From IMG/VR virus record IMGVR_UViG_3300042508_000526: a DNA stretch of 64,000 nt; one strand, written 5' to 3'. The notes beneath the pieces were generated by a model. It was not told where the DNA came from. It did no database searches and saw nothing but the letters and a program-made list of their open reading frames with translations. The position numbers and the translations under genes were made by a program. Positions 1,182-61,494 of this stretch are shown here, one piece after another (the stretch's first letter is position 1; each line of letters starts with the position of its first letter). Source of the stretch: a virus. Lineage: Duplodnaviria > Caudoviricetes.

Positions 1182-1215
1182 GTAAACCTCCGTATTACAG
1201 CGTAAGTATACAAAT

Positions 1216-1249
1216 AAAAACGGCTGGCCGCTTACGCAGCCAGCCGTTT
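1216..1249 (-). terminator. intrinsic terminator after capsid operon
   Basis: minus strand AAACGGCTGGC-TGCGTAAGCG-GCCAGCCGTTT followed by TTATTTG. Confidence 0.75.
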
Positions 1250-1274
1250 AGGAGAGTTTGACGAGGTTTAACGC

Positions 1275-2976: not shown

Positions 2977-3001
2977 GTTCCTGAATTAGTTAGGGATTAG
3001 A

Positions 3002-39068: not shown

Positions 39069-39229
39069 GGTTTGTCTTCCGTTTTGTTATCTAGTGGTTT
39101 GGGTTGTGGTTTTGAGTAATCGCAGCGGCCGCCTTCACAGCACGTCTCGATGATGATGTGGCAAAAGGGGCAGACAGCTTTCCCGCGTATCTCCACCGAC
39201 GGGCTTTCGCACACCGGGCAGACACTCAT
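39065..39229 (-). CDS. 54-aa zinc-ribbon protein (not in ORF track)
   Basis: MSVCPVCESPSVEIRGKAVCPFCHIIIETCCEGGRC...; start and stop overlap flanking genes. Confidence 0.6.
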   Translation of the reverse strand: MSVCPVCESPSVEIRGKAVCPFCHIIIETCCEGGRCDYSKPQPKPLDNKTEDKP

Positions 39230-39861
39230 CACCAATTGACCTCAATGGGATTACGCGTCTTGTAGCTGAAGTCCAGATCGACGGGTGAGCGGAGTTTAAC
39301 GTTAGGTAGCGGCAGCTTCGGCGCCACGGCCGCAGTTCCGCCCAGCAAACCAGCTGCTGCCAGCGTCGGCACACCGTACGATGTTTGCGACAGCGCATTA
39401 AGCCCGCGGCCAGCAGCTTGTAAACCTTCGCCGGCCATGTTGGTAGCGTGACCGACGCCACGGACAGCGCTGCCGCTGAGACGCGAGCCGTGGCCAACCA
39501 TGCCATACAGATCTCGCAGCCAACGGGGATTTGTTCCCGGCACAGAATCAATCATCTTCTTGCCGCCCGTCTGCATGCCGCGGCCCAGACCCAAGAACAA
39601 TCCGCCAAGACCTGTTGAGTTGCCAAGGCTTGTACCGGTTGTGGGCGAAAACGATGTGCGGGCTTTCGTGCCGACCATCTTGCCGATACCTTCGGTCAGG
39701 CCGCCAAAACCTTTCACGATGTGCTGCGAGCCGCGATCGAGCGTCTTCGCGCCGGAAGCAACGCCGCGCAACGCATTCATGATGCGCCCACCCACACTGG
39801 TAGGATTAATCGCGGCCTTTTCCATTTCACCGACGGCTAAGCCAAATTCATACGGATTCAT
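39229..39861 (-). CDS. Gly-rich virion cargo protein
   Basis: MNPYEFGLAVGEMEKAA leader; amphipathic Gly-rich helices. Confidence 0.7.
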   Translation of the reverse strand: MNPYEFGLAVGEMEKAAINPTSVGGRIMNALRGVASGAKTLDRGSQHIVKGFGGLTEGIGKMVGTKARTSFSPTTGTSLGNSTGLGGLFLGLGRGMQTGGKKMIDSVPGTNPRWLRDLYGMVGHGSRLSGSAVRGVGHATNMAGEGLQAAGRGLNALSQTSYGVPTLAAAGLLGGTAAVAPKLPLPNVKLRSPVDLDFSYKTRNPIEVNW

Positions 39862-39871
39862 GTATCACTCC

Positions 39872-40582
39872 TCAAAAGTTTGCGATCGGTTGCGGCCGGA
39901 ACGCTGTCGGCGCCATCGGCCTGTTTAAGTTTGGCACTTGCGGGGCTGGCGTCGCCGGAAGCGCCTCTGCCGTAGCAGCAGCGGCGTTATGGGGCGCACC
40001 ACCCGAGCCGTTTAATACCATCGGGCCAGCGATCGTGGCCGTCGTGGCCGGATTGCGAATAGCAGCGTCGATTGTTGAACGGACCGGAGCAGCCTTGGTG
40101 ATTGCGCCATATTGCTGCGGCACGATCTTCTGCAGACCCTTGGTGACAGCCTGCTGGCCCTGCGTGGCTGCCCGACCGCCAGCCTGCACGAACTTCTGCG
40201 CGGCCACACCGCCTTGTCGCAACGCTTGGTTGCCGACAGCTTTGCCAGTGGCGCTCAAGCCCTTGCCGATTGTTTTGCCAACCGCGCCACCCACACCGGG
40301 CAAGAAGCTCAGCGCGGTCATGCCCGCAGCGCCAAGCGCGCTTCCAAAACGACCGTTGTACAGATGTCGCGCCATGTCGTTCACACCGGTTGCGACGCCC
40401 GTAAACGGATTCGAGTACAGCGCGATGTCTTGTGCTAAGCCGCGCTGTGTGGGGTCGAGCTGATTCAGGCCGAGCGCCGGCCCGCTGCCTAGCGCGATTT
40501 CGCCCGCAACTTGTCCGACGTCACCCCAGCTGGCGCGCTTTGTGTACGTACCGACGGCGTAACCAAACTCGTACGGCTGCAT
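39872..40582 (-). CDS. Gly-rich virion cargo protein
   Basis: likely start MQPYEFGYAVGTYTKRAS; FGSALGAAGMTALSFLPGVGG segment. Confidence 0.7.
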   Translation of the reverse strand: MQPYEFGYAVGTYTKRASWGDVGQVAGEIALGSGPALGLNQLDPTQRGLAQDIALYSNPFTGVATGVNDMARHLYNGRFGSALGAAGMTALSFLPGVGGAVGKTIGKGLSATGKAVGNQALRQGGVAAQKFVQAGGRAATQGQQAVTKGLQKIVPQQYGAITKAAPVRSTIDAAIRNPATTATIAGPMVLNGSGGAPHNAAAATAEALPATPAPQVPNLNRPMAPTAFRPQPIANF

Positions 40583-40589
40583 AGTAAGC

Positions 40590-40967
40590 TCACTTTTTGT
40601 ACTGCTGGCATTTACGCACCAGCATCTTTGCGCGGAAGCTTCTGGCCATCTTGCGAACGTCCTTATTGTAACAATGATAACTAAAAAAGTGCCCAAACAT
40701 GAAGTGGCAGGGCGTATCGCAGAGTGTAATCAGGTTATTTTCCGTTAATTCCAGCTCCGGCGCAATGCTCACTGGAAAAATATGGTGCACGATAACATTG
40801 GCCGTGCGCCCGCAGACTTCACAGGCGGGATGCGCTTTTAAATGCGCGGCGCGAACTTTCTTCCACGCCAAAGCACGTTCGCGATACGCCAGAATATGTC
40901 GCGGGCGTAACCATAGAGGAAGCCACGTGATGCAAAACTGCCAGAATCGCGACAAGAAGTTTTGCAT
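40590..40967 (-). CDS. HNH endonuclease
   Basis: CEVCG, VHHIFP, NNLITLC..CHFMFGH. Confidence 0.85.
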   Translation of the reverse strand: MQNFLSRFWQFCITWLPLWLRPRHILAYRERALAWKKVRAAHLKAHPACEVCGRTANVIVHHIFPVSIAPELELTENNLITLCDTPCHFMFGHFFSYHCYNKDVRKMARSFRAKMLVRKCQQYKK

Positions 40968-41086
40968 GAGGCCACCTGCGTACTGCCGGCTGTGTGTCGC
41001 GGCAGATAGGGGCAATTAATACATCGCCGGCCGCAACATTGTTTTCTCGATAACAAAAACTCCCGCGACAGTGGTTCCGGCGTCAT
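40838..41086 (-). CDS. small Cys-rich protein (DUF5522-like)
   Basis: FLLSRKQCCGRRCINCPY; C-terminal part overlaps the HNH ORF so boundaries are uncertain. Confidence 0.5.
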   Translation of the reverse strand: MTPEPLSREFLLSRKQCCGRRCINCPYLPRHTAGSTQVASCKTSCRDSGSFASRGFLYGYARDIFWRIANVLWRGRKFAPRI

Positions 41087-41436
41087 AGCACAGTAGCGTG
41101 CTGCGTAAATAACTTCTCGTACACGACGTAGATTTCAGCATACGCTACACCCCACGCAGCGTCGTGCGCTAACTTATTAAAATCCTCGTCGGTGACCGCG
41201 GCATCGAGGCGATGGTTCCACGCCCTCGCGTGTGCCCACTCATGGAGCAGCACATCCATGGCCCGGGACTCATCCAGACTCTTGTCAATCTGAATGTGAA
41301 AGCGCTTGCCGTGTTTCCAGCAGCGACCCTCTAACTTAGAAAGCTTGACCCGGCGAACTGTCACCGGAAAAGCAGCCGGACTGAGCTTTTTCAGCGTCCG
41401 GAGGAGGGCCTGATAATATTTAAACTGAGCCGCCAT
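41083..41436 (-). CDS. zincin (SprT/ImmA-like) metallopeptidase
   Basis: LLHEWAH HExxH motif, downstream AHD..WG. Confidence 0.7.
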   Translation of the reverse strand: MAAQFKYYQALLRTLKKLSPAAFPVTVRRVKLSKLEGRCWKHGKRFHIQIDKSLDESRAMDVLLHEWAHARAWNHRLDAAVTDEDFNKLAHDAAWGVAYAEIYVVYEKLFTQHATVL

Positions 41437-41513
41437 GCTCCATCCTCCTGAAGGGCGTCCTTGCCACATCAGGCCGATTATACCGGGCGGCGCAACGTTT
41501 GCCTGCACGCTTT

Positions 41514-42956
41514 TTAAGCGTTTTTCTGTAGCTGCGCTAACACGCGGGCAGCGCTCTCTTTAATTTCTTCTTCTTCCTTTTTGTCGTCTTTTTCGTCGTC
41601 TTTTTTCTCGCTCTTTTCGTCGTCCGGCTTTTTCTTCTTGCCGATGCTGGAACCAATATTACCCCCCAGATGAGCGCCTGCCCCGAGCCCCAGCGCGCCG
41701 CCACTTAACAAACCCAGTCCGGCACCCGGAGCGCCGCCGAGCGCACCACCCGTCAGCGCACCCATCAGGCCGCCACCCACGCCGCCGGCCAAACCACCGA
41801 CGCCAGAGCCCAGCACGCCGCCGAGCAGCGACGCCTTCTTGCCTTCCCACGACGGAGCGCCCATCGCAGCATCAGCCATCGAATAGCCGGCGCCACCACC
41901 CAGCGCTGCACCGCCGACGCCGCCTGTAAACAGCGTGTTCATAGCCTGTAAATGCGACGCCGGAGACGAACCGGGACCGCCGGCACGACGAACTAACTGC
42001 CCTCTACGCGCTAGTGATTTGAGGTAATCCCCGAGCTGGCGAGCTGACGGCGCAAAGAACTTTTTCGCCAGTCGCGGATTGGTCGACGCTAAAAGCAGCG
42101 TGCCGAGCGCGCCAATGGGCGCACCTACCATCATGCCGGCGCCAGTTGCTGTGCCCTTGACCGCGCCGCGGCCGACACCTTCCATGCGGTGGCCAGACGG
42201 CGCTGTCGCCGCGCCAAGACCAGCGCCAATACCGGCCGACGGCAGCATCAGCGCCGCCATCTTGTCGCCTGCAGCGGCTGCGGCTTCCTCTGGCGCAGGT
42301 GTCGCGGGCGTCTGCGGATTGCGGAACACGCCATCAGAGCCAATAAGATTGCTGCCGTGACCCTGCGCGGCGAGCATGGGATTGATAACGGCACGCTCCA
42401 ACGGATTCATCGTTTTCTGCCCCTTAGCTTTTAACATTGCGTCGCCAAGCATGCCGCCAACCAGCGCTGATTGCTTCATCTGCTGGCCTGCCATCAAGCC
42501 AGCACCAGCAACACCACCGGTCACCGCAGCCCGAGTCGGCGTACCAAACATTGTCTTGCCCATGCGACCAGCAATGTCAGAGCCCATTTGATTTACCTCT
42601 TTCACAAGCGGTTGCGCCGCATTCTGCAGCCGATTCGTGGCCCGCTGCGCTTGAATTCCGAGTCCGCGCATCTGTGTGGTCGCGGTGTTCGCGACTTGAT
42701 TGGCCGCGTTGCCGAGTTCACTGCCGACTTCATTGACGGCGGCACCTAGCGCACGCTCGCCAGAACGGATACCGGCACCAACGCCGCGCATGCTGTTGCC
42801 GAGACCAGAGACAGCATTGCCGACCATATTGTTACCCAGATTCTTCGCGGCAAAGTTAGCAATACCTTTTCCAGCGGCGTTGACTGCGCGACCCAGAAAC
42901 GCTTGCTTTGTCTGCTGACCAACTTGCATACCAAATTGCTGGGGCGTAACGGCCAT
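41514..42956 (-). CDS. Gly-zipper virion cargo protein
   Basis: MAVTPQQFGMQVGQQTKQAFLG leader; repeated KQSA/KMAA/KKAS/KESA motifs, each preceding Gly-zipper blocks. Confidence 0.7.
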   Translation of the reverse strand: MAVTPQQFGMQVGQQTKQAFLGRAVNAAGKGIANFAAKNLGNNMVGNAVSGLGNSMRGVGAGIRSGERALGAAVNEVGSELGNAANQVANTATTQMRGLGIQAQRATNRLQNAAQPLVKEVNQMGSDIAGRMGKTMFGTPTRAAVTGGVAGAGLMAGQQMKQSALVGGMLGDAMLKAKGQKTMNPLERAVINPMLAAQGHGSNLIGSDGVFRNPQTPATPAPEEAAAAAGDKMAALMLPSAGIGAGLGAATAPSGHRMEGVGRGAVKGTATGAGMMVGAPIGALGTLLLASTNPRLAKKFFAPSARQLGDYLKSLARRGQLVRRAGGPGSSPASHLQAMNTLFTGGVGGAALGGGAGYSMADAAMGAPSWEGKKASLLGGVLGSGVGGLAGGVGGGLMGALTGGALGGAPGAGLGLLSGGALGLGAGAHLGGNIGSSIGKKKKPDDEKSEKKDDEKDDKKEEEEIKESAARVLAQLQKNA

Positions 42957-43050
42957 ACGGTCACCTGTGGCTTGAATAGAGTTTTGGATCTTCTTTTTTG
43001 TAACGTGCTGTGCAATGCGCTCGAACAACTTGCGGCGAGATAGTAATAAC

Positions 43051-45555
43051 TCAGCCGCCCGGGCTCCCGGTTGCGTCGACAGTAAACTCGATATCGGAAA
43101 CGTCGGCATCGCTGGGCCCCAAAATACTTCTAATTACCGGCTTGGTCGCGTTTAACACAGCCTTGTCGGGGAGCTGGTATTTTACAAGCTTGCGGCGCTT
43201 CCGTGAAAGCGGGCGTTTGGCTGTGCGCGTAATGTGCTGCTGGAGCACACGCAGCAGATCATCGCCGGCACCCGTAATTCCAGCTTGTTTGTCACCGGCC
43301 TGCTCTTTGCGGCGGCGCTTTAGATATTTTTGCAGCTCTTGCTCTTGGTATTCCTGCAGCATGGTCTTAACATCGCCGGCCTGAACTTTAGAGACCAGCT
43401 TTTCGGGGTTAATCGCCCAGTGTCTAAGCGCCCAGCCACGACGAGGTGTAGGATTGCTGACAAACGGTCCGCCATGCCGCGCTTTGAAGCTCGCCCAGCG
43501 CTTGATCTGTCGCGTGTCTTCGTCGGGGATTCTCCGCCCAGAGTTATAGTTCTGATACCACTCCAGCCAGCCCTTGGGGTCATGCTCTGTCACCCACTCT
43601 GGCTTCCATTCGCCCAGACTGGCTAACCGCGGCCCGTCTTTCTCGTACAGCGACTTGTACACACCCATGGCATGCAACTGCCCGGGCGTATAGTCAGGCT
43701 GAAAGTCAGGAAGTTCCGCGCCGAGCTTTTCTTGTTGATAGCGCGAGCCCTCTTCTTTCAGGAGCTGCCGGAAGGCTTCGTTGAGCTGCTCTTTCTCAGC
43801 CGTGAGGCGTTCCAGCACTTCGTCGCCCGTGCGTTCGCGCTTGTAGCCCATGAGCTTGCCAACAATGCTGGGCTCTTCGCTGGCGCTTAGATATCTTTTG
43901 ACGGCGACGTTTTTGAGTTCCTCTGGCAAATCCCGGTGCGAGTCAAAACGCAGGCCACGGCCTTTGGCTTGCTGGCTGCGCGATTCATGCCAGTGCGGGT
44001 CGAGCAGCTGAATCAAGCTCGTGCCGCGGGTGGACAAGCCTTCAGCGCCAGCCGGGCCAATGAGCAGCGCCCGCAGCTTGCCTTGGTTGTACGCATCGAC
44101 GGCCGCTTGGCGCGCCTTGGGTGTTACGCCGCCGTGGAAGAACGCATGCGGAACTTTGGCTTTCTCCAGCGCGGACGCATACGGCGCCAAGCCAGAGTCA
44201 ATAAAGTTCGAGTAGATAATCGCCTTCTTGCGCTTGTCTTCCGCCAGCGTCTTCTGCAAGTCTTGAAACGCCTTTTGTAACTTAGCGCTTTGCGAAAACG
44301 CCTTAGACGGATCTTTATCGGCGCGAAACGGCTGCGTCGACAGGCTCACTTGGCGCAGGCCCGTCATAAAGCTATTTAATTTGGCCAGCTCATCGCGGGA
44401 CAATGGAAACTCTTGGTCCAGCTTCCAGAGAAAGCCCGGCGGAATCTTCGTGCGGATGGCGTTCTGAATCTTCTTTTGTTCAGCACTGAGCGGGACTTTG
44501 ACCTGCTCTTCTTGAACGTTCACGCCTTCGGGTGTCTTGCTGGGCTGATAATCGACTTTGCCCTTCAGCAGCTGGCGCAGTTCTTTCTCGTTCTTAACAA
44601 TCGGCTTCACGCCGGGCTTCACCCCACGCAGCCAGCCAAATAAACCCGGCCGCACGGTCTTGTAGCCCACGTAGCGCTTCTCAAACTCTTCGGGCGACAG
44701 CTGCTTGTTGTGCAGCATGGCCAAGAGATTCGCCATGTCGCTGGGCGAGTTGGTAATCGGCGAGCCTGTTAATAACAACAGGCGCTGCGCTTTGGCCGCG
44801 GCTTCAGCAGCGCCGACAGAACTAGCGCTCCCGGGATTACGTAATCTATGCGCCTCGTCCATGATGAGCGTGCTGGGCTGCTGCTGGAACTTCTTGCCCA
44901 ACGCCAAGCCGGTGTAGCTCATGATCTCCGGATTGGAGTTGCGCGTGAACTTCTTGACTTCTTTGTCAAAGTTCCCACGCAAGCTCGCCGGCACAACCAC
45001 GCCATAGTCTTCGCCGGTCTGCTTCTTGGCTTCTTCAGCAGCCGCGAGTGACGACAGCGATTTCCCAGAACCCAGTCCGTGATACACCAGTAGTCTGGGA
45101 TCTTCGCCGGTAATGCGATCGGCAATGCGCTGCTGGTGCTCTTGCAGCTGCAGGTCGGGGATGAGTTCCGCGGTTTTGTCTGCTTCTATCTTTGCCCACG
45201 CATCGTCTTTGCTCATGCCGTTTTCTTGCAGCATCCACGCTTTATGGATTTGATCACGTTTTGCTGTTGGATAAAAGCTTAAATCTGTGTTGTTGCCAGA
45301 AGCGGTTAAAAACCCGCCCGGTCGTTGCTTGAGTTTATAGCCGTGTTTTTGCGCAAGGGTGTGCAAAAGTTTCCGAAAACGTTCTTGCTGCGCGACATCA
45401 TCCGTAAACGCAATGTAATCATAGTCGCGCCCCTGCGGCGCCGGACGGCCGTACATTTTTGCGCGGCCCCGCGAACCCATAAGCTCGGCATCGCGCATAA
45501 AACTCGCTGCCGGCTTCGGTAATGTATCGTCGAGAATGCTGTTAATTTTGCTCAT
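43051..45555 (-). CDS. multi-module protein: minimal nucleotidyltransferase + SNF2-type helicase + conserved DPxGW domain
   Basis: GSRG..DYDY..TDL; LVYHGLGSGKS, MDEAH, LLTGSP, AEGLS, QAKGRGLR; HDPKGWLEWY..GRR..DEDTRQIKRW; junctions KTA, KLGA, KQAG. Confidence 0.8.
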   Translation of the reverse strand: MSKINSILDDTLPKPAASFMRDAELMGSRGRAKMYGRPAPQGRDYDYIAFTDDVAQQERFRKLLHTLAQKHGYKLKQRPGGFLTASGNNTDLSFYPTAKRDQIHKAWMLQENGMSKDDAWAKIEADKTAELIPDLQLQEHQQRIADRITGEDPRLLVYHGLGSGKSLSSLAAAEEAKKQTGEDYGVVVPASLRGNFDKEVKKFTRNSNPEIMSYTGLALGKKFQQQPSTLIMDEAHRLRNPGSASSVGAAEAAAKAQRLLLLTGSPITNSPSDMANLLAMLHNKQLSPEEFEKRYVGYKTVRPGLFGWLRGVKPGVKPIVKNEKELRQLLKGKVDYQPSKTPEGVNVQEEQVKVPLSAEQKKIQNAIRTKIPPGFLWKLDQEFPLSRDELAKLNSFMTGLRQVSLSTQPFRADKDPSKAFSQSAKLQKAFQDLQKTLAEDKRKKAIIYSNFIDSGLAPYASALEKAKVPHAFFHGGVTPKARQAAVDAYNQGKLRALLIGPAGAEGLSTRGTSLIQLLDPHWHESRSQQAKGRGLRFDSHRDLPEELKNVAVKRYLSASEEPSIVGKLMGYKRERTGDEVLERLTAEKEQLNEAFRQLLKEEGSRYQQEKLGAELPDFQPDYTPGQLHAMGVYKSLYEKDGPRLASLGEWKPEWVTEHDPKGWLEWYQNYNSGRRIPDEDTRQIKRWASFKARHGGPFVSNPTPRRGWALRHWAINPEKLVSKVQAGDVKTMLQEYQEQELQKYLKRRRKEQAGDKQAGITGAGDDLLRVLQQHITRTAKRPLSRKRRKLVKYQLPDKAVLNATKPVIRSILGPSDADVSDIEFTVDATGSPGG

Positions 45556-45800
45556 CAGCTCACCGTAATGTTGCGAGCTGTTTTATACATTGCCCAGAGG
45601 CCCAAACCAGCTGACACCAAGCCCAGATATTTAAACGACGTGTAGACCGTGACAAAGAAGTAAATCCCCAGCCAGCATGAAAGTGCGCCGATCACCACCG
45701 CCAGCACATGCCAGCGATTGATTGCGCATAGGGCGGCGATCGGCCCGCACAGCAAGACCGCGCACACAATCAGGAATACCATGAAGGCCAAACTTTCCAT
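45555..45800 (-). CDS. membrane protein (3 TM)
   Basis: 81 aa, almost entirely hydrophobic. Confidence 0.6.
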   Translation of the reverse strand: MESLAFMVFLIVCAVLLCGPIAALCAINRWHVLAVVIGALSCWLGIYFFVTVYTSFKYLGLVSAGLGLWAMYKTARNITVS

Positions 45801-45808
45801 GCCACACC

Positions 45809-46144
45809 TCAAAACGCGCTACGGCTGACACGTTTGGTCACAGCCGGCATCGTCGGCTTGGGTGCGGCAGGTGCGGCGGGCCTTGTCACCGGCGCGGGCG
45901 CAGCAGGCTTCGCGGCCACTGGCGGAACGCGCGTTCCGGCACCAACGCTCGTCACTTGTCCGCGGGACAGCGTGCCCTGCAGCGGCTGCCCGGCAGGAAT
46001 ACCAGCTTGACGGCCGGCTGCCTGTAGCTGCTGCGCTTTGCCCTCCAGTGCCGCGTCTTCGCGCTCCATGCGCGCCCACTCCGCGTCAAAGTCGCCCATG
46101 GCTAATTTAATACGTTGCCCAAATTCAAACGGCGTCATAGACAT
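45809..46144 (-). CDS. small virion cargo protein
   Basis: MSMTPFEFGQRIKLA leader; Pro/Ala-rich tail. Confidence 0.65.
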   Translation of the reverse strand: MSMTPFEFGQRIKLAMGDFDAEWARMEREDAALEGKAQQLQAAGRQAGIPAGQPLQGTLSRGQVTSVGAGTRVPPVAAKPAAPAPVTRPAAPAAPKPTMPAVTKRVSRSAF

Positions 46145-46154
46145 AACTTTCTGT

Positions 46155-47012
46155 TTATTTGTCAGCCGGAAACACCAGATTCAGATCCGATGCGGTGGTG
46201 CCCTTGCCGGCAATGCGCAATTCGTGCGCTGTGATCTGTGATTCTATCCAATCCGCGTACAAACTGATACGGGTGTGCGCTGCTTCGTCGCCATACGAGC
46301 CGTTGGGTTGCTTATCCGCCGCCATGAGAAATGAATTAATTCCCGCCAATTTGTTGCCAATAAACATTCCGCCACCAGAATCGCCCGGCGTAATCAAAAA
46401 TTCGAGCGGATAACGATTTTTTACGTCCGCCCGGCAAATCAACACGCCCCGCTCCGTGCCTTCGACCGCATTGTGCCCGCCCCGACGTTTGTTATCGGCT
46501 GTTTGGGCGCCGGTGTGAAATGTGCCCGCAAAGCCGTAGCCCGCAATGGTCACAGCTTTGCCCAGCTCATCGGTGTCGCGATACAGCTCCGGATAAAACT
46601 CTGCTTCGAAATCTTTGTCCGAATAGCACAGCGCCAGATCCCCGTGCCCAAAACTCTCATCTTTGAAGTCGTGGTGAATGACAAAATACGGCACCGCATG
46701 TTTCTTGTCGTCGGCCAGCATGATCTCCGGCTCGCGCGTGTCATGGAGCACATGCGCCGCCGTAAGCGCCCAGTTCGGCCGGATTAAGACAGCCGAGCCG
46801 TACTGATGCAGCGTAATCTCGACGCCGCTTTTCTTATCTTTAATCGTCGTCAGCGCACGAATGCGCACGACATTGGGAAACTGCTTGCCGAATTCGACGT
46901 ATTTCTCGTCTGGCGTGTTCGGATCACGAGTGCCGGCCAAAGCTACAGACGAGCCGGCTAGGATTAGAACTATGTAGCGAAGCAGGTGGGCAAAGGTTTC
47001 TCGCACGTTCAT
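46155..47012 (-). CDS. exported trypsin-like (S1) serine protease
   Basis: signal peptide; LTAAHV, GDLAL, PGDSGGG. Confidence 0.92.
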   Translation of the reverse strand: MNVRETFAHLLRYIVLILAGSSVALAGTRDPNTPDEKYVEFGKQFPNVVRIRALTTIKDKKSGVEITLHQYGSAVLIRPNWALTAAHVLHDTREPEIMLADDKKHAVPYFVIHHDFKDESFGHGDLALCYSDKDFEAEFYPELYRDTDELGKAVTIAGYGFAGTFHTGAQTADNKRRGGHNAVEGTERGVLICRADVKNRYPLEFLITPGDSGGGMFIGNKLAGINSFLMAADKQPNGSYGDEAAHTRISLYADWIESQITAHELRIAGKGTTASDLNLVFPADK

Positions 47013-47053: not shown

Positions 47054-49039
47054 TCACGCAGTGGGTCGTAAAAGTTTCTGAGCCTGTGCAAACATGTGCG
47101 GATCTAACTGTGGCGGCATGGGCTTGGCCGGCGACGCTTTGAGCGCATTGCCGACAGCGCCGAGACCATAACCAGCCGCGCCCATCAGTCCGGCCGCACC
47201 CAGACCGAGGACCGTACGTTTGTTGGCGCTGCGCATCAGGTCTTTCAGGACCTTTGGTTTGTGCGTCACGCCGAGAATCTTTACGCCGTCATCCAGCAAC
47301 GTTGTGCTGGGCAGCGTGTCCGTGTGCGGAATCGGAGCTTTGCGGAGGCCCATGCCCTCCATCACCGCAGATGGCATCGAGCCACAGTGATTGCCCCAGC
47401 ACGTCGAACCGCCGGGTCCACGACCGCCGATGTAGGGCAGCTTTTGCGTCCACGGAAACCACCGCCGCAGCATGTTAATACCAGTGACTTCTTTCCCGCC
47501 GGCGCCTACCGCGTCTGTCGTGGCGTATGACTTGCCGACTTGCGCGCGGAGATTATTTGTTAACTTTTCTGGCGTGGCAGCAATTCCACGGTCATCAGGC
47601 CGGAACCATGTCGTGCCGCGTTCGCCGCCATAGGCGCTGCCGGGCATATCAGCCGGCCGGACACGCGAACCTTCGTTGACCAGATCGTGGTACACCGTGT
47701 CGGTCATGCCGCCATTGAACGTGGGATACAAGAACGAGTTGGGCGCTTTGCTCAGCGAACGCCGATCCGCCGCCATTTGCTTGGCGTTCTCACGCAGATA
47801 CTTGCGCAGCGTGCTCACACTGCTGCCGACGCCACTGCGATACGCTTCTTGCAGCGACTCAGGAAGCTTGGTTGCCATGGCCAGCAAGGGATCACTGGCC
47901 GAGCCCATCGCGCCGCCGTGATGCAACGACGGCACAAAGCGCTCGAACGCTCGCGGTTTAAATATGTTTGACCGCGGCATGGCGCCTGTGCGGGACGGCG
48001 CTTCCCGAGCAATGCGCTTGATCTCTTCCGCCAGCGCCCTAGACTTCGGCCCGCTGCGCTGCGCAAACTGTTCTGAGAGCGCCTGTAGTCTTTTTTGCGC
48101 GGCTAATCCAGCCTGATTGCCGCCTTGTAACTTACGAATCTCATCTAAGTTACTAGCAGTTTGAGCCTGCGGCGTGCCACCAAAGAATTCGCTGATGCCT
48201 TCTGCGCCCAGTAGCTGCTTCAGGTTGGTGACGCCGTCGGTCTTGGCGCGGCGCACACTCTTTAACTCACGCAGACTGGGCCGCTTGCCTTCTGGCTTGG
48301 GCACATCTTTGCCGGCTTGGCGTGCGGCATCATATGTTTCCCACGCTTTGCGGCGCGCGCTTAGCTCTCGGAACTCACGCGAGCGACCGCGAATGTGTTC
48401 CTTCATCAGGCCGTAGTCATAGATCTCGCCCGTGGTGCCCGGCGAGAATTCTCCATAACCCGCCACGAAATCTTTGTAGCCCTTTAGTTCAGCCTTCGTG
48501 GGTTTCTTAACTGTTGGTTTGACAGCCGCTTGGCCTTTGGACTTGGCTGCCTCGTAGTCAGCCCACGCTTTCTGGCGCGCCCGTAAGTCTTGCTGGCCAG
48601 AATACTCAGCCGCGAACTGCGGCCCGAAGGCTTCGCCGCGGCTATTAAATAACAATGGCAGATCGGGCGTTGTAGCTCCGGGCGCCATACGGGCAATGTC
48701 ATGCGGCGTGCGAATATTGGGCCCGACAATCTGGCCGTGCGCACCGGGACCGCCAGACGAGCTAGCCGAGCCCTCGATGAGAAAATCTACAAGAGGATTA
48801 CGCTCCGCACTGCGCTGCAAACCAGCCACGCCTACGTCGCCGGGCCGTAATGTCTTGAGCGCGGTGGCAATATCGACGTCGCCGTTCGCCAGCGTCCAGT
48901 CCGGCGCGTCTTGGATCATCTTTTTGTAGCGCGGCAGCGTACGGAACAGATATTCCAGCAGGCTCGCCGACGGAAGCGCAGCACCGGCAACCGCGCCAAC
49001 AGGACGTAGATCTACGCCATTATTATCGTCTGGGGGCAT
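47054..49039 (-). CDS. large virion-type protein, possible permuted NlpC/P60 fold with insertion
   Basis: LRPGDVGV..AHGQIV near N-terminus; QVGKSY..HCGSMPSAVMEGMG near C-terminus; terminal Gly-zippers. Confidence 0.45.
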   Translation of the reverse strand: MPPDDNNGVDLRPVGAVAGAALPSASLLEYLFRTLPRYKKMIQDAPDWTLANGDVDIATALKTLRPGDVGVAGLQRSAERNPLVDFLIEGSASSSGGPGAHGQIVGPNIRTPHDIARMAPGATTPDLPLLFNSRGEAFGPQFAAEYSGQQDLRARQKAWADYEAAKSKGQAAVKPTVKKPTKAELKGYKDFVAGYGEFSPGTTGEIYDYGLMKEHIRGRSREFRELSARRKAWETYDAARQAGKDVPKPEGKRPSLRELKSVRRAKTDGVTNLKQLLGAEGISEFFGGTPQAQTASNLDEIRKLQGGNQAGLAAQKRLQALSEQFAQRSGPKSRALAEEIKRIAREAPSRTGAMPRSNIFKPRAFERFVPSLHHGGAMGSASDPLLAMATKLPESLQEAYRSGVGSSVSTLRKYLRENAKQMAADRRSLSKAPNSFLYPTFNGGMTDTVYHDLVNEGSRVRPADMPGSAYGGERGTTWFRPDDRGIAATPEKLTNNLRAQVGKSYATTDAVGAGGKEVTGINMLRRWFPWTQKLPYIGGRGPGGSTCWGNHCGSMPSAVMEGMGLRKAPIPHTDTLPSTTLLDDGVKILGVTHKPKVLKDLMRSANKRTVLGLGAAGLMGAAGYGLGAVGNALKASPAKPMPPQLDPHMFAQAQKLLRPTA

Positions 49040-49593: not shown

Positions 49594-50343
49594 TCACGAG
49601 ACGGCGACCGCGTTGACCACGGTGACCGGCTTCGACTGCTGGGTCTCGGCCTCGACCTGCGCTTCCGCCTCCGTCAGGCAGGTGGCGAGCAGCTCACGCC
49701 GCACGCCAGCCTGAAAGAACGCGTACGCCACTTCGGCCACGCAGCCAGCGGTCACGGCGCCGAAGAACACGGCGGTGATCTGCTGGACGAGCGTGCTGCC
49801 GCCGAGGCTGGCCGCGACACCGGCCATCGCACCACCGGAGAGCACACCGGCCACGACCGAGATACCGATCGTAGCGGCGGCCACCATGAGGTTGATGGCG
49901 ACGTTGTTCACGGCCACCCAGTCCACGTTCATGGAGCTGATCAGCTCCTTCACGTAGGACAGGGCCTCGCGGACCTTGCCGACCGCAGCCGTCGCCATCT
50001 GGCCGAGCCAGTTGACGACCGCCCGGACCGCATCAGCCGCGCTGGCGTAGATGCGGCCGAGGAACGTCCAGACACCGGACGCGATCGCCTTGAGGGCGCT
50101 GAACGCCTTCTCGGTGATCGTGTAGATGCCCTCGCCGATCCCACCCAGCACCGCCGCCGTGCCGTCATAGACGCGCACGAGCGGGCTGTTCGAGTGGACC
50201 GTCTCCTCGACGATCTGCTCGATGTCCTCCCGGGTGAGGGGCTTGGACTTGGTGCGCGTGCGAGTGGCCGAGGCCTTCTTCGTGGCCTTGACCCGACGGG
50301 CACCGATCTTCTCACGCATCGACATCTTGACCTTCGTTGTCAT
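49594..50343 (-). CDS. membrane protein with basic N-terminus
   Basis: 249 aa, GGAG RBS, own promoter and terminator; Lys/Arg-rich N-terminus, amphipathic middle, 2 TM helices. Confidence 0.75.
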   Translation of the reverse strand: MTTKVKMSMREKIGARRVKATKKASATRTRTKSKPLTREDIEQIVEETVHSNSPLVRVYDGTAAVLGGIGEGIYTITEKAFSALKAIASGVWTFLGRIYASAADAVRAVVNWLGQMATAAVGKVREALSYVKELISSMNVDWVAVNNVAINLMVAAATIGISVVAGVLSGGAMAGVAASLGGSTLVQQITAVFFGAVTAGCVAEVAYAFFQAGVRRELLATCLTEAEAQVEAETQQSKPVTVVNAVAVS

Positions 50344-50466: not shown

Positions 50467-51549
50467 TCAGCCGTCATTCCGGGCTTTCACCACCATCTGC
50501 CCCTTCGCAGGCCACAATACCATCTGTTGCATTGTGTCCTCGTCAGTTACATCTTTCAGTAACTGCAGAGCTGTTACTGGACGCTGCGCGATCTCTTCCT
50601 TGCGCTTGTCATTGAGCTTGTCGCGCAGGACGAGCTTCAGCGCGTCATACCGCGGATACGTGTTCCATTCCCAGCCGTCCTCGTTGACCGGGTTGTACTC
50701 AGCGTACTTCCCAGACACGTAATGGTTGGTTTGCGCCATCGCATGTCGCTTGGTGCGAATGGTCGACGTATCCCCGACATGAGTTACAACAGTGTGTTCT
50801 TTGGACTTGGTACCGACCACGTGCGCAAAAAACGGCACCATGGTTTCGTAGTTACGCAAGCCGAGAACTAACCCGTTGTAACTTGGCAGCTGATCACACA
50901 CGGCTCTGACCCGCTGTAAGGCAGGCCATTTGAAGAGCAGTGTGGGAGCTGCCAGCCAACCAGACCAAGTGTTAAGCTTGTTAACAATTGGCGCCTGATT
51001 GACCGTGACTGCCCAGTTGTCAGCCATTGCAGATATCACGCCCACCATGCCAGCAACGCCCACAGATGTGTAGGACTTGTTGCCACGGTGAAAGCGCAAG
51101 ATCTTGGTGTGCCGGCCTGTACTGCGCGGCACCACCCAGTCCATGTTCCGGACCAGCAATGGCGTGTTATCAACCTCGAAGCTGATACTGGAGCACCCAC
51201 AACCGTACATCTCGGCAAGAGATGTAAAGTCGTAGATGAGGTTCCCCAGCATCAACTTACCCACAGGGACATCAGCGTGCTGGGCAATGCACGCCAGTTC
51301 CTGTGTGTACTCTTCACCAAATTGATTGACAACTTGGCGAAGTAACCAGCCGGTGCCGGAAGCCAAAGCATGCAGCGCGGTACAGAGCGTGCTGCCCAGA
51401 TATGGCTCCAGTTCTTCTGAGACGGCGGTTTCCACGTCGTCCAGAAGCTCAGCGATGGCTCCGGCTTCACGCTGCGCGAATGTCGCCCAGCGTGTGTCGG
51501 CCGGCTCGTCGAGGTCGATGTCATGAACCCGCCGAGGACTTGTAAACAT
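50467..51549 (-). CDS. Ntn-hydrolase (C45/acid ceramidase/NAAA-like)
   Basis: helical prodomain, CGCSSI (nucleophile Cys), LLVRNMDW, VGVISAM, TVNQ, QTNH. Confidence 0.8.
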   Translation of the reverse strand: MFTSPRRVHDIDLDEPADTRWATFAQREAGAIAELLDDVETAVSEELEPYLGSTLCTALHALASGTGWLLRQVVNQFGEEYTQELACIAQHADVPVGKLMLGNLIYDFTSLAEMYGCGCSSISFEVDNTPLLVRNMDWVVPRSTGRHTKILRFHRGNKSYTSVGVAGMVGVISAMADNWAVTVNQAPIVNKLNTWSGWLAAPTLLFKWPALQRVRAVCDQLPSYNGLVLGLRNYETMVPFFAHVVGTKSKEHTVVTHVGDTSTIRTKRHAMAQTNHYVSGKYAEYNPVNEDGWEWNTYPRYDALKLVLRDKLNDKRKEEIAQRPVTALQLLKDVTDEDTMQQMVLWPAKGQMVVKARNDG

Positions 51550-51554
51550 GATGT

Positions 51555-52109
51555 TTAATTCCTCGATGGTGACAAAGAACGGCAGGCATCCAGCCCATCG
51601 AGCAGGGCCTGCAGCTTGGTGTCCCGAACCTTGGCCTGTGCATCTCGCACTCTGTCAGCCGGGGTTTCGGGCAGCACGGGGCCGACGAGGCCACCATGCT
51701 TGTTGAGCACCAGCACCACCACCTCCACGGGCACCCAGCCGAAGACGTCGCCAGTGCCGTCTTCAGTGCCCATGTCGGAGTACGGCGCCAGCAGCGGCTC
51801 AGGCTGCGTGGGGAAACCGATCTCCACTGCGTTCCACGGGCCGGTGTCCCGGCGCGGGGAGCAGTAGTGACTCTGGCTGGCCTGCACCGACATGCTGAAG
51901 CCGTCTCGGCAGAGCATGGGCCGGCGCTGGTACAACCCGGACTCGGGCTTCCAGTACCGGACGTTGTTCATGTCGTTGAGGTACCCGTTCACCAGCGCCA
52001 GCGCGTTTTCGAGCTGCGCGATCTTGGCGAAGTGATACCCCATGACGACCAACATCGCCACGACAGCCGCGACCAGACCGGTGACCACGATGTTAACATC
52101 TGCGAACAT
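51555..52109 (-). CDS. conserved phage hypothetical protein with N-terminal TM
   Basis: CRDGFSMSVQASQSHYCSPR..VEIGFP..KHGG motif. Confidence 0.7.
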   Translation of the reverse strand: MFADVNIVVTGLVAAVVAMLVVMGYHFAKIAQLENALALVNGYLNDMNNVRYWKPESGLYQRRPMLCRDGFSMSVQASQSHYCSPRRDTGPWNAVEIGFPTQPEPLLAPYSDMGTEDGTGDVFGWVPVEVVVLVLNKHGGLVGPVLPETPADRVRDAQAKVRDTKLQALLDGLDACRSLSPSRN

Positions 52110-52199: not shown

Positions 52200-52233
52200 C
52201 ACCGTATATGCCCGCTTTTGGTCTTTTATTTAG
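52200..52233 (-). promoter_or_regulatory. conserved phage promoter copy 2
   Basis: CTAAATAAAAGACCAAAAGCGGGCATATACGGTG. Confidence 0.75.
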
Positions 52234-52236
52234 CTA

Positions 52237-54462
52237 TCAGGAGGCGGCCGCAACTCCAGCCCCTGCGCCACCCACAGCAGCCGCTCCGCCAGCCCCATAG
52301 GCCAAGCGTTTCCCGGCCGGCACCATCGGCGACGCGACCGTCATGCCATACTGGAGCATGGGCTTGTACACATACTTGCCAACCGCGGGCATAACGCCGG
52401 ATTCATGCGGCTTGTACACCATGCTGTGATCCGCGGCCGACAGCCCTTGCAGCCGGCGCGGTGAAAGCTGGAACTCCACGGGTGTCTGGCCCAGCGTGCC
52501 CTTGATGTTCCAGCCGTGATAGCCCGGGCGCTGGAGCATTTGCGATTTACTTATGTTTACGCCGGCCTCTGTCAGCTGCTTCGTTAAGCTATCAATGACA
52601 GGTTGGTCATAACCGCCCTGCGATGTGAGCCGAAAGCCCAGCAGGTCATTGGTTATTGTGTCGCCGTGGCCAGCAATACTTTGCGGTGTCTTTACCCGGC
52701 CGGCATACACTTGGAACCCTTTGGGCTGAAATGACTTCAAGAACTCATTGCCGGCCTGTAACGCCTGCTCACGTTCTTTCTGGAAAACGCCTTGGGGCAC
52801 ATTGTCGCCCAGCGTTGTCATGGGGCCACGAAATGCGCTTCGAGCTGCGCCCACAGCCTTCGAGATACCCTTGAGACCAATGCGCCGGCCGAACTCCATG
52901 AGATTCGCCGACTTTTCTTTTTCGTCGGGCCAGCCGGGTTGCAACTGGTATTCGTACACGGGCTCGCCATGCAGCAGTTGTTTCTTGGCGAGGGCTGGAA
53001 CTTTGCCGACCATAGCGCCGGACGGATCGGGTTGCAGGCGATAGCGTTCCTGCAGCCATTGTTTTTTGTATTCCGGATCTGTTTTGGCCAGCCGCATGAA
53101 CCCCTGTGTCTGCACAAAGTTTTCGATATCTTTGGGCGCAAGGGAAACATTATGTAATCTCTCGGGCGGCACGCTCAGGGGCGTAATCTTGTAGTGTGTG
53201 CCTTCTTCTAACTGGCGCTTGTGTGTCCGCTCCGCCAGATGTTTACGCAGCCGGTCGAGAACTTCCTGCTGTTTCTTCTTGTTCCCGGGAATGATGGCGC
53301 GCGCTTCCCCTGTCCGGGCATTGTTGTAGGCCAGTCCGGGGTGCTGCAGCTCATCAAGAATCTGGTGTAAAGACTTGCGCAGGTTCACGCCCTGCACATT
53401 GCCCTCAAAGCTGTACACGGCAGACTGCTTGCCGAACTCATAGGCGCTGGAGCATTTGCAGTTCCACTTGCGCAGAGATTTGTTAATGCGCGAGTCAGGA
53501 TCTTTGGCCGTGCTGGCGCCAGTGTTAACTCGACGCATGCCGCACATACGGGAGCAGAAAGAATTCTGGCGCTTGGCCCGGTCGCCCTTGGGGTTACTTT
53601 CGGTCACAGGGGCTTTTAAGTTCCCGCCGTGCTCCCGTTCGTAGCTCTTGCGCCCCTTCTCGTTGAGGCCGCCAGCTTCGTTTTTGCCCTCGCTGCGCTG
53701 CCATGCCGGAGTTGACGATATCTTTTCGCTGCTATTGGCGGTCCCAAAAGACGCATTGCCGTTAATATCGCCGCTGGACGAGATAGCCCCATAAGAATTA
53801 ATGGGATTGGCGTTGGGAGAGCTACCGCCGCCTACTGGAGGAAGCTGCCCGGATTGCCCTTGGGCGCTCGCTTGGCCGCCAGCAGGGGCCGCCGGGGCTG
53901 CAGGAGCCTGTGCCATACCCATTGGGGGCGGCGTCGCGGCAGCTGGCATGGCGTATCGTTTAATTCCACTGTTCATCGGCTGTAACTGGGCGTTTCGGGC
54001 CTCCTGTTCAGCCTTTTCATTCTCGATCGCCTGCATAATCGGCTGGGACAAGACGACCGAAAGCTTTTTAAACAAGCTATTTTCCGCTTTTTCCGGCATT
54101 TTTTCGCAGATATGGTTTTCCCCCACGGTTTCTGCCGGCTGGACGGGTTTTTCACCTGCCGCCATGGGTTTATCACTCTGGGGGAGCGTAACTTTAACCG
54201 TTGTAGACTCGGCTTTCTTGCAAATTTGGCTGTAAATACTTACCGCTAATGACTTTGCAGAAAAATCCCAGTTGTTTGGCACCATGGCTGTTTTCTTATT
54301 TGTATCGTCGTCGCTGGACTCTGGCTTTTTGTCTTCTTGAGCCTTGTCAGAGACGTACAGAGGGAGCTTTTTAGGCTTCGGATACTCATGCGCCCAGCGT
54401 TTGGCAATATCTGGGTGCGCAGCCCAGAGAAACCGTCGCTGTTTTTCTGAGCGAAAGGGCAT
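52237..54462 (-). CDS. multi-module cargo protein incl. acylphosphatase-like and RelA/SpoT-like synthetase domains
   Basis: MPFRSEKQRRFLWA module; AWQRSEGKNEAGGLN..SFCSRM..LRKWNC module; GNVQGVNLR; GRVKTPQSI, DLLGFRL, GYHGWN, VEFQL, DHSMVYKP. Confidence 0.75.
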   Translation of the reverse strand: MPFRSEKQRRFLWAAHPDIAKRWAHEYPKPKKLPLYVSDKAQEDKKPESSDDDTNKKTAMVPNNWDFSAKSLAVSIYSQICKKAESTTVKVTLPQSDKPMAAGEKPVQPAETVGENHICEKMPEKAENSLFKKLSVVLSQPIMQAIENEKAEQEARNAQLQPMNSGIKRYAMPAAATPPPMGMAQAPAAPAAPAGGQASAQGQSGQLPPVGGGSSPNANPINSYGAISSSGDINGNASFGTANSSEKISSTPAWQRSEGKNEAGGLNEKGRKSYEREHGGNLKAPVTESNPKGDRAKRQNSFCSRMCGMRRVNTGASTAKDPDSRINKSLRKWNCKCSSAYEFGKQSAVYSFEGNVQGVNLRKSLHQILDELQHPGLAYNNARTGEARAIIPGNKKKQQEVLDRLRKHLAERTHKRQLEEGTHYKITPLSVPPERLHNVSLAPKDIENFVQTQGFMRLAKTDPEYKKQWLQERYRLQPDPSGAMVGKVPALAKKQLLHGEPVYEYQLQPGWPDEKEKSANLMEFGRRIGLKGISKAVGAARSAFRGPMTTLGDNVPQGVFQKEREQALQAGNEFLKSFQPKGFQVYAGRVKTPQSIAGHGDTITNDLLGFRLTSQGGYDQPVIDSLTKQLTEAGVNISKSQMLQRPGYHGWNIKGTLGQTPVEFQLSPRRLQGLSAADHSMVYKPHESGVMPAVGKYVYKPMLQYGMTVASPMVPAGKRLAYGAGGAAAVGGAGAGVAAAS

Positions 54463-54586: not shown

Positions 54587-54916
54587 ATGCACGCGCTCAA
54601 GACGAGTTTTATTTCGCTGGCGTTGATTCTGTGGGCTGGGGAAGCCTACGCAGAAACCTTAGAGATGTTTTCGGCTGACTGGTGTAAATACTGTCAGCAG
54701 GCGAAAGCAGATTTACTGCCTGAAGATGCGCTGGTGGATAAATACCGGCTGGAAATCATCGACGTGGACCGGGCCAAGGAACTCGCCAAAGATAACAATA
54801 TCAAAACCCTGCCCACGTTTATCCTGCGCGATGACGAGGGGAAAGAAATTGCCCGCCAGACCGGATATCACGGCCTGCGAAAGTTTAAACGCTGGCTAGA
54901 AAATCACACCCGCTAA
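54587..54916 (+). CDS. exported thioredoxin-family protein
   Basis: signal peptide, WCKYC, LPTF cis-Pro motif; AGGAGG RBS; TGCTATACT -10 upstream. Confidence 0.85.
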   Translation: MHALKTSFISLALILWAGEAYAETLEMFSADWCKYCQQAKADLLPEDALVDKYRLEIIDVDRAKELAKDNNIKTLPTFILRDDEGKEIARQTGYHGLRKFKRWLENHTR

Positions 54917-55580: not shown

Positions 55581-55614
55581 CACTAGATATACCCGGTTTT
55601 TGCCCGATATTTAG
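55581..55614 (-). promoter_or_regulatory. conserved phage promoter copy 3
   Basis: CTAAATATCGGGCAAAAACCGGGTATATCTAGTG. Confidence 0.75.
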
Positions 55615-56470: not shown

Positions 56471-56504
56471 CACCTAATATGCCCGCGTTCTGGCGCAAAT
56501 TTAG
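56471..56504 (-). promoter_or_regulatory. conserved phage promoter copy 4
   Basis: CTAAATTTGCGCCAGAACGCGGGCATATTAGGTG. Confidence 0.7.
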
Positions 56505-56688: not shown

Positions 56689-56716
56689 CTAAATCGGCTA
56701 CAGGCACCGGCGATAT
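56689..56716 (+). promoter_or_regulatory. plus-strand copy of the promoter motif
   Basis: CTAAAT-CGGCTACAGGCACC-GGCGATAT, same spacing. Confidence 0.5.
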
Positions 56717-57845: not shown

Positions 57846-57879
57846 CACAATATATGCCAGCATTTGACCGGTTATTTAG
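57846..57879 (-). promoter_or_regulatory. conserved phage promoter copy 5
   Basis: CTAAATAACCGGTCAAATGCTGGCATATATTGTG. Confidence 0.7.
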
Positions 57880-61140: not shown

Positions 61141-61146
61141 GGCGAG

Positions 61147-61494
61147 TGGAGCCGGCGGGAATCGAACCCGCGTCCAGAGATGTCTCCAATAAAGACGTCT
61201 ACATGCGTAGGTTGTTGCTACTTGCGCTACAACCAAAGCCAGCCGATTATCGGCGTCAGGTGGGTTACCACCATCTTTGCGTGTCTTTCCACGCCGCCTG
61301 CTGTCTTCCCAGCGGCCAACCTGATTGGGCGATGAGGCTCAGGTCGCCTCACCCGATCACTGCGTCAAGCAGCGAGAGCGGGAGCGCTGTTGAGGGCGCC
61401 AACTAACAATGTGGGCGATTTTTAACGTGGCCCTTCGTCCAACCACGGCATGCAGTCTAGATCTTCCTCATCCTGTCGAAACCAGTACGGCCCC
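61147..61494 (-). ncRNA. ssrA: tmRNA (standard one-piece); tag (A)GALNSAPALAA*
   Basis: 5' GGGGCCGTACTGGTTTCGAC; 3' GCGGGTTCGATTCCCGC-CGGCTCCA with G3-U70; tag ORF 61400-61365 after TAGTT. Confidence 0.93.

Follow-up and report, generated by a model that had tools for sequence, protein, structure and literature searches.

A divergent RelA/SpoT-type synthetase module in a polyvalent-type protein of an uncultured lake-water jumbo phage

P0001 is a 741-amino-acid open reading frame (ORF) on the minus strand of a 64,000-nucleotide stretch of the IMG/VR virus record IMGVR_UViG_3300042508_000526 (Duplodnaviria; Caudoviricetes); this whole stretch is called the window below, and positions refer to it unless stated otherwise. 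In this study, we propose that the C-terminal part of P0001 (residues 526-741) is a divergent RelA/SpoT-homolog (RSH) synthetase that forms one module of a polyvalent phage protein, and this explanation as a whole is given a probability of roughly 60%. The original prediction, made from the sequence, had placed a small alarmone synthetase (SAS) domain at the end of a cargo polyprotein. A RelA/SpoT-type domain with intact catalytic motifs is confirmed here by a family profile, by PF04607 matches in relatives, by the fold of an AlphaFold2 model and by invariant alignment columns. It also forms, as predicted, the C-terminal end of a protein built of several modules, with DUF6321 and acylphosphatase-like modules lying upstream. 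The source genome is a complete virus record (203,206 bp, 127-bp terminal repeats, 54.7% G+C) and belongs to an uncultured, lytic-looking jumbo phage from lake water that encodes its own multisubunit RNA polymerase.

Results

Synthetase motifs and sequence relatives

The five synthetase (Syn) motifs that had been quoted originally were all found in this one ORF (ORF list and translation), between residues 588 and 685. The ORF, the domain and the motifs are located as follows.

52237-54462, minus strand: P0001, modular ORF, polyvalent-type phage protein (translation; Pfam DUF6321 and a weak acylphosphatase match)
52303-52797, minus strand: RelA/SpoT-type synthetase (SAS-like) fold, residues 556-720 (AlphaFold2 model, Foldseek, VIA, profile against the PDB, invariant columns)
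52675-52701, minus strand: Syn1, GRVKTPQSI, residues 588-596
52627-52650, minus strand: Syn2, NDLLGFRL, residues 605-612
52507-52524, minus strand: Syn3, GYHGWN, residues 647-652
52465-52479, minus strand: Syn4, VEFQL, residues 662-666
52408-52434, minus strand: Syn5, ADHSMVYKP, residues 677-685

The span proposed earlier, 52400-52720, holds for the catalytic core; the folded domain is larger (about residues 556-720) and its N-terminal helix begins just past a K-x-A junction. The catalytic residues of P0001 are R589, K591, S595, D606, R611, Y648, G650, N652, E663, Q665, H679, Y683 and K684. Syn1 R-x-K-x3-S and Syn2 D-x2-G-x-R (with G609), the motifs for the ATP phosphates and Mg, are present, as are Syn4 E-x-Q and Syn5 H-x3-Y-K, so that no residue for ATP-Mg binding or for catalysis of pyrophosphate transfer is missing.

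When 1.84 billion representative proteins were searched exhaustively, only 35 related clusters emerged, and 30 of these relatives of the synthetase domain were aligned (alignment A1, identity 27-75%). The invariant columns of A1 coincide with RSH catalytic positions, namely the R and K of Syn1, the D of Syn2, the E and Q of Syn4 and the H of Syn5. When the A1 profile was compared with the PDB, 12 RelA/SpoT-type chains ranked ahead of any unrelated protein (E-values of 1.7e-5 for 3l9d, 1.6e-4 for 2be3 and FaRel2, and 3e-3 for YjbM), with Syn1 to Syn5 aligned in register. A check with hidden Markov models (HMMs) of the RelA_SpoT family, as suggested with the original prediction, gave a divided result: PF04607 was silent on P0001 itself and matched 5 of the 30 relatives (best E-value 2.2e-5), one relative also having a precomputed PF04607 match. 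The synthetase domain is highly divergent and missed by curated HMMs, yet it is a genuine RSH member. Standard HMM surveys of RSH enzymes therefore overlook this phage lineage.

Structural evidence

AlphaFold2 run with the A1 alignment gave a model with a predicted local distance difference test (pLDDT) score of 91.1 and a predicted template modelling (pTM) score of 0.82. A single-sequence AlphaFold model was poor (pLDDT 50) and was not used. The model has the RSH synthetase fold, that is, a five-stranded mixed sheet with flanking helices and a Pol-beta-like nucleotidyltransferase core. In the VIA comparison with about 48,000 PDB representatives, ranks 1 to 10 were all RSH synthetase domains (Z 11.2 down to 6.8), and the first non-RSH nucleotidyltransferase followed at Z 6.8. 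The best matches were four small alarmone synthetases with 152-154 aligned residues, namely SAS2 (Z 11.2; 152 residues, 3.3 A), RelP (10.9), SAS1 (10.5) and the exported SaEAS (10.1). Rel (9.1), CapRel (8.3 over 162 residues), SpoT (7.7) and Tas1 (7.3) scored lower, and FaRel reached Z 5.7. Since the ten best solved structures are RSH enzymes, the concern raised with the original prediction, that the fold might not be RelA/SpoT-like, does not apply.

In Foldseek searches of the PDB the first 35 matches were all RSH. Structure searches of the ESM Atlas and BFVD returned RelA/SpoT, Tas1-like and large phage polyvalent proteins, the BFVD matches including large proteins of uncultured phages named ART-PolyVal-like and DdrB-like. 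We regard the RSH-type fold and the homology of the domain as close to certain.

Predicted activity and acceptor

The conserved catalytic residues suggest that the domain is probably active, and it would then act as an ATP-dependent 3'-pyrophosphokinase. The change from His to Asn in Syn3 that had been noted earlier is present, but it is a known adenosine-type signature and not a defect. In the phage Apk2 (p)ppApp synthetases Syn3 reads G-x-N, whereas S-x-H is the form of the RSH enzymes that make (p)ppGpp (PMC12226406). Syn3 of P0001 reads Y-H-G-W-N, so the base-stacking Y648 is kept and G650 and N652 replace S-x-H; the Syn3 His is retained in three distant relatives in A1. Because Syn3 carries the G-x-N of Apk2, the balance tilts slightly towards an adenine-type acceptor and away from tRNA. 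Judged by this motif, an adenine nucleotide is the likeliest acceptor, at slightly less than even chances. With ATP or ADP as acceptor the product would be (p)ppApp, by which ATP would be drained and purine synthesis blocked. A guanine nucleotide, the tRNA CCA end or a new substrate are possible acceptors. Syn2 of P0001 (G-F-R) resembles that of ordinary SAS enzymes.

Module organisation of P0001

Upstream of the synthetase, P0001 is composed of several further modules, and a short tail follows it.

54358-54462, minus strand: putative N-terminal basic motif module, residues 1-35, containing SEKQRRF (translation)
53464-53688, minus strand: DUF6321 module, residues 259-333 (PF19846, E-value 1e-19; several PHROGs, E-values 1e-28 to 1e-32)
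53419-53442, minus strand: internal junction Y-E-F-G-K-Q-S-A, residues 341-348, directly before the acylphosphatase-like module (translation)
53236-53415, minus strand: acylphosphatase-like module, residues 350-409, with the loop G-N-V-Q-G-V-N-L-R and the motif G-L-A-Y-N (PF00708)
52918-53235, minus strand: conserved "X" region, residues 410-515, which always accompanies the acylphosphatase-like module (alignment A2)
52888-52917, minus strand: K-x-A junction E-K-S-A-N-L-M-E-F-G, residues 516-525, bordering the synthetase module on its N-terminal side (aligned column across the family)
52240-52302, minus strand: Gly/Ala-rich "glycine-zipper" C-terminal tail, residues 721-741 (hydrophobicity, conservation)

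The N-terminal module matched phrog_1375 weakly (residues 3-27, E-value 0.004) and is joined to DUF6321 by a low-complexity linker; E-K-I-S stands at residues 246-249, ahead of DUF6321. In cultured cyanophages and a pelagiphage, DUF6321 occurs within or beside genes annotated as structural. The acylphosphatase family PF00708 matched whole P0001 with an E-value of 6e-4 and the isolated part with 8e-5 (23.3 bits, cut-off 22.5), and in relatives its matches reach 1.6e-7. Alignment A2 comprises the acylphosphatase-like module plus the X region from seven proteins, one of them with reversed module order. Its mean column identity is 50%, and the G, L, A and N columns of the acylphosphatase-like module are invariant.

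Both elements originally described around the synthetase were found, EKSAN-LMEFG ahead of the domain and the Gly-zipper tail behind it. The tail is the most hydrophobic 19-residue window in P0001 and was modelled as a helix with low confidence (pLDDT 54-62). The closest relatives keep it, and several of them likewise terminate with one. Gly/Ala-rich hydrophobic segments resembling the tail were also observed in two nearby proteins, of 661 residues (47054-49039, minus strand) and 249 residues (49594-50343, minus strand). The segments common to these proteins may be an anchoring or membrane-insertion element.

Relatives and module shuffling

RelA/SpoT is listed among the domains of phage-type polyvalent proteins, and host shut-down by alarmone synthesis was proposed for it (Iyer et al. 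2017, PMC5512222). P0001 combines DUF6321, the acylphosphatase-like module and the synthetase in one polypeptide, and modules are shuffled among its relatives. The acylphosphatase-like loop motif occurs in six of the closest relatives. In five it lies 235-263 residues before Syn1, and in the sixth the acylphosphatase-like module and the synthetase stand in reversed order. This conserved co-occurrence of the acylphosphatase-like module and X with the synthetase suggests a functional link between them; a complex prediction for the two parts scored 0.00 and was uninformative either way. Other relatives carry 2H phosphoesterase (SAK), MazG, P-loop kinase-like AAA_18/AAA_33 or DUF6321 modules in varied combinations, MazG being fused into the synthetase polypeptide in two of them. 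In one contig a giant protein bearing a NUDIX domain neighbours the synthetase relative. In the shorter relatives the synthetase stands alone, in proteins of 190-250 residues. Thus, P0001 belongs to a known class, that of RelA/SpoT modules in phage polyvalent proteins, as a divergent clade with its own partner, junction signature and tail.

The gene recurs nearly whole in at least 23 metagenomes of lake water, dated 2020 to 2025, and no RNA data set is listed among the runs that contain it. For four of the runs, a single change is listed in the synthetase part, at 52693; it falls on the third base of codon V590 and is synonymous. The N-terminal linker region is far more variable. This thin pattern is compatible with constraint on the synthetase part.

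A shared leader and K-x-A junctions

Almost every one of the 35 family members, whether fused or solo, shows one aligned K-x-A column, which precedes Syn1 by about 55-70 residues. In the solo proteins it follows an N-terminal leader of 15-35 residues. Five otherwise unrelated genes in the neighbourhood of P0001 (block 36855-46144, minus strand) begin with a leader of the type aromatic-E/Q-F-G ... K-x-A:

minus strand: leader-bearing genes listed at 36855, 39229, 39872, 41514 and 45809; starts of the genes, 39068, 39861, about 40585, about 42940 and 46144

In its strict form the leader pattern has three occurrences in the genome, always three residues behind a Met, against 0.26 occurrences expected. 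In P0001 a K-x-A junction stands at each module border, with internal copies of the pattern ahead of the acylphosphatase-like and synthetase modules. In two other phage contigs, the leader of a solo synthetase is common to an unrelated neighbouring protein; that leader reads aromatic-x-D-E-L-x-K-I-A/S and was found at 775-1539 (minus strand) and 2634-3311 (plus strand) of a marine contig, and near 9878 and 20126 of a second viral contig.

Two further genes of the leader-bearing block were noted. A trypsin-like serine protease (46155-47012, minus strand; PF00089, E-value 2.4e-12) carries a Y-V-E-F-G-K motif of its own besides a hydrophobic N-terminus, and is a candidate for the K-x-A processing enzyme. 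An 834-amino-acid SNF2 helicase protein (43051-45555, minus strand) is DarB-like. It matches the helicase part of phrog_62 (1881 positions, E-value 7e-44) and, weakly, families exceeding 2200 positions in length, among them one named as a DNA methyltransferase; the block thus holds a further protein of polyvalent type. Cleavage sites of the phiKZ type (S/A/G-x-E) occur in P0001 at about chance frequency by rough reckoning and were dropped.

Immunity candidates and other neighbouring genes

No recognisable antitoxin was found among the neighbouring genes, in agreement with the original prediction, and a genome-wide search found no alarmone hydrolase or small alarmone hydrolase (SAH; PF13328). 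The following elements lie downstream of P0001 or repeat across the window.

51555-52109, minus strand: 184-amino-acid ORF with an N-terminal hydrophobic helix, the sole positional immunity candidate (no family match)
52206-52233, minus strand: promoter-like element CTAAAT-N14-GGGCATAT, immediately behind P0001, beginning four bases past its stop codon
50436-50463, 52206-52233, 55587-55614, 56477-56504 and 57852-57879, minus strand, and 56689-56716, plus strand: copies of the promoter-like element

The evidence does not support the 184-amino-acid ORF as an immunity gene: it matches no family, a promoter-like element of its own precedes it, and no counterpart lies beside any relative. Indeed, the genes beside the relatives share nothing with the 184-amino-acid ORF, a 360-amino-acid ORF or the other neighbours here. 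CTAAAT-N14-GGGYATAT with rigid spacing occurs six times in the window (up to two mismatches) against 0.29 expected, and the copy behind P0001 would drive the next gene separately. The 360-amino-acid ORF (50467-51549, minus strand) gave weak, sub-threshold matches to Ntn-hydrolase-type families (AAT, NAAA-beta). A MazG-family gene was observed outside the window, 124 kb away (genome positions 8238-8369, minus strand; 179-amino-acid frame, 24.1 bits, above the cut-off). A small ORF that diverges from the synthetase gene (about 54587-54916, plus strand) resembles an exported thioredoxin-like protein by its sequence features: its ribosome-binding site is strong, it starts like a signal peptide and it contains the motif W-C-K-Y-C (CxxC).

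The phage's own tRNAs and transfer-messenger RNA (tmRNA), to which the original prediction had pointed, are present. The genome has nine tRNAs, and the tmRNA (61144-61494, minus strand) matches Rfam RF00023 over its full length (130 bits, E-value 1.6e-50); it was missed by ARAGORN on both the window and the genome. A tie between the synthetase and these RNAs is speculation.

Discussion

In this study, we observed a divergent RSH synthetase domain in a modular protein of a jumbo phage. Several results weigh against the explanation given here. Pfam, NCBIfam and PADLOC scans of P0001 and of its isolated C-terminal part (residues 520/530-741) gave no RelA/SpoT match even at E-values up to 10, and PF04607 matched nothing in the whole genome. 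Among cultured phages, a tblastn search with the synthetase domain gave no match at E-values up to 1, so that nothing is transferable from experiments. Syn4 reads Q-L-S-P instead of Q-I-R-T, a peculiarity of this clade. Known enzymes hold the triphosphate with the helix that follows Syn1; here this helix is shortened, and the Lys four residues past the Syn1 Ser is His599 in the P0001 subgroup. As regards the acceptor, Apk2 has R-Y-T in Syn2 and Y-H in Syn4 (PMC12226406), and the G-F-R and L-S of P0001 are unlike these forms, which leaves Syn3 as the one Apk-like motif. Moreover, the product is not readable from sequence because motif swaps leave the specificity of these synthetases unchanged (PMC12226406). 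Finally, a genome-wide search found no MuF domain (PF04233) and no prohead protease (PF03420 or PF04586). Two more searches came back empty: phmmer with the isolated domain against the PDB, and megablast with 20 kb of the window against cultured phages. The post-Syn1 helix was compared using the residue roles described for FaRel2 (PMC11782079), and a distant solo subgroup keeps the canonical Lys after Syn1.

It is tempting to speculate that P0001 is targeted to the capsid and possibly cut at the K-x-A junctions. Delivered with the DNA, the synthetase would disturb host nucleotide pools or translation as infection starts. A lytic phage that makes P0001 late and packages it would not need an immunity gene. 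Cleavage of a "polyprotein", capsid cargo and host shut-off, as originally envisaged, are plausible in the light of the K-x-A junction, the shared leader and the analogy to polyvalent proteins. Packaging and injection of P0001 may be considered, with chances moderately below one half. Alternatively, P0001 might be an ordinary intracellular, unpackaged enzyme, synthesised in the course of infection, that makes (p)ppGpp or (p)ppApp to reprogram transcription and metabolism of the host, the K-x-A and E-F-G elements being mere linker or structural features. The failure to find a prohead protease, MuF or another packaging domain agrees with such an enzyme, and so do the solo versions that lie among non-structural genes near a phage RNA polymerase in other contigs, and the phage's own MazG, a member of a family known to act on nucleotides. 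Against it, the leader is common to unrelated proteins in three different phages, and the K-x-A column persists even in solo proteins, behind 15-35 residues. The DUF6321 partner is also tied to structural genes in cultured phages, and polyvalent architecture has been linked to co-delivery with DNA (PMC5512222). We consider the intracellular enzyme rather unlikely, at about one chance in four.

Other explanations concern the chemistry of the domain. A tRNA-targeting enzyme like FaRel2, CapRel or PhRel2 would attach pyrophosphate to the CCA 3' terminus of host tRNA while the phage tRNAs and tmRNA sustain translation. The profile match to FaRel2 (1.6e-4), the structural match to CapRel, the basic character of the domain (isoelectric point about 9.7) and the RNAs encoded by the phage would fit, but the nucleotide-using SAS enzymes are closer in structure (Z 10-11, against 5.7 for FaRel) and FaRel2 has G-x-H in Syn3, not G-x-N. 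In addition, the Arg that the R564 column of the N-terminal helix conserves suits a phosphate-bearing nucleotide acceptor and, by our reasoning, escape of the phage tRNAs is not obvious as they also end in CCA. This target appears improbable. Could the domain instead be catalytically dead or repurposed, serving in nucleotide binding or as a structural part and modifying neither alarmones nor tRNA? The metal- and phosphate-binding residues are all invariant among 30 relatives of 27-75% identity, which is unexpected in a dead enzyme, and the more distant solo members, in which the Lys and His have their canonical forms, bridge the gap to the standard SAS enzymes. The blindness of curated HMMs, the altered positions (short post-Syn1 helix, His for Lys in S-x3-K, S-P for R-T in Syn4) and a supposedly toxic enzyme without an immunity gene leave a dead domain a small share of the probability. 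A smaller share still falls to a non-canonical acceptor, for example a host defence signalling nucleotide, so that P0001, working together with its nucleotide-directed partner modules, would be a tool of counter-defence and not a toxin for host shut-off. Fusions of relatives to 2H phosphoesterase, MazG and P-loop kinase modules, the NUDIX-containing neighbours and the linkage of the acylphosphatase-like module and X to the synthetase in both orders are in line with it, and nucleotide-centred polyvalent modules were proposed to counter host nucleotide signalling (Iyer et al., PMC5512222). Against this, no RSH enzyme is known to act in this way, and the acceptor loop retains the Tyr for purine stacking as in ordinary alarmone synthetases. 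More far-reaching, and a long shot, is the idea that the acylphosphatase-like module with X and the synthetase form a new two-part nucleotide-modifying effector, loaded into the capsid via an undescribed leader/K-x-A code, possibly cut by the trypsin-like protease, with a product beyond (p)ppGpp, (p)ppApp and modified tRNA, such as a modified defence-signalling nucleotide.

RelA/SpoT-type enzymes are known as stress regulators, as toxins of toxin-antitoxin (TA) systems, as secreted effectors and as MuF-fused toxins of prophages. To our knowledge, nobody has yet shown a role of such an enzyme for a phage during infection. The clade described here is a clean test case, with lytic-looking jumbo phages, no immunity gene and a fixed partner module. 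Furthermore, its conserved leader and junction signature might show by which rules these phages select proteins for the capsid and process them.

Comparison with known systems

The divergent RSH module of P0001 was compared with five kinds of known system. The best structural matches are the housekeeping enzymes RelQ/SAS1 and RelP/SAS2 (PDB 5dec, 6fgk, 6ewz) and the exported SaEAS (8vx3), with Z 10.1-11.2 over about 152 residues and the five Syn motifs in identical order. The P0001 domain differs from them in its low identity (12-18%), in G-x-N instead of S-x-H in Syn3 and in the shortened post-Syn1 helix; it adds the N-terminal helix and the Gly-zipper tail, and it sits in a phage multi-module protein.

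With the toxSAS enzymes (FaRel, FaRel2, PhRel, PhRel2, CapRel), P0001 shares the RSH fold, the association of members with phages and a likely growth-inhibiting chemistry. Unlike them, it has no adjacent antitoxin, no fused pseudo-zinc-finger domain and no SAH gene, and the match to FaRel is weaker (Z 5.7); the toxSAS label of the original prediction was therefore given up. The Apk2 MuF-fused (p)ppApp toxins of temperate phages (PMC10083569, PMC12226406) are similar in having a C-terminal RSH synthetase in a presumed capsid-carried protein and G-x-N in Syn3. In contrast to these, P0001 has neither a MuF domain nor Tis1/IapK-like or Aph1 immunity genes, its Syn2 and Syn4 forms differ, Tas1 is a middling match (Z 7.3), and the host genome is that of a lytic-looking jumbo phage, not a prophage. 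As no antitoxin, MuF domain or alarmone hydrolase was found, P0001 is a member of neither the toxSAS TA systems nor Apk2.

In phage T4, Alt and the internal proteins carry a short leader that is common to unrelated cargo, is cut off in the head, and the proteins are injected with the DNA. P0001 resembles them as an enzyme with a short N-terminal leader type common to several unrelated proteins, cutting and injection being only proposed here. The leader differs (aromatic-E-F-G ... K-x-A), and no gp21-type protease was found.

The closest parallel in architecture is offered by the polyvalent RelA/SpoT proteins of Iyer et al., in which a RelA/SpoT domain is likewise strung together with unrelated enzymatic modules, reshuffled, and also found solo. 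As in that class, an SNF2 helicase protein lies in the gene block and delivery with the DNA is presumed. The clade of P0001 comes from lake and marine jumbo phages, whereas theirs comes from spirochaete and epsilon-proteobacterial prophages. P0001 is also invisible to PF04607 and lacks a zincin-like metallopeptidase (MPTase) domain, and it differs further in its fixed acylphosphatase-like plus X partner, its K-x-A junctions with the E-F-G leader and its Gly-zipper tail.

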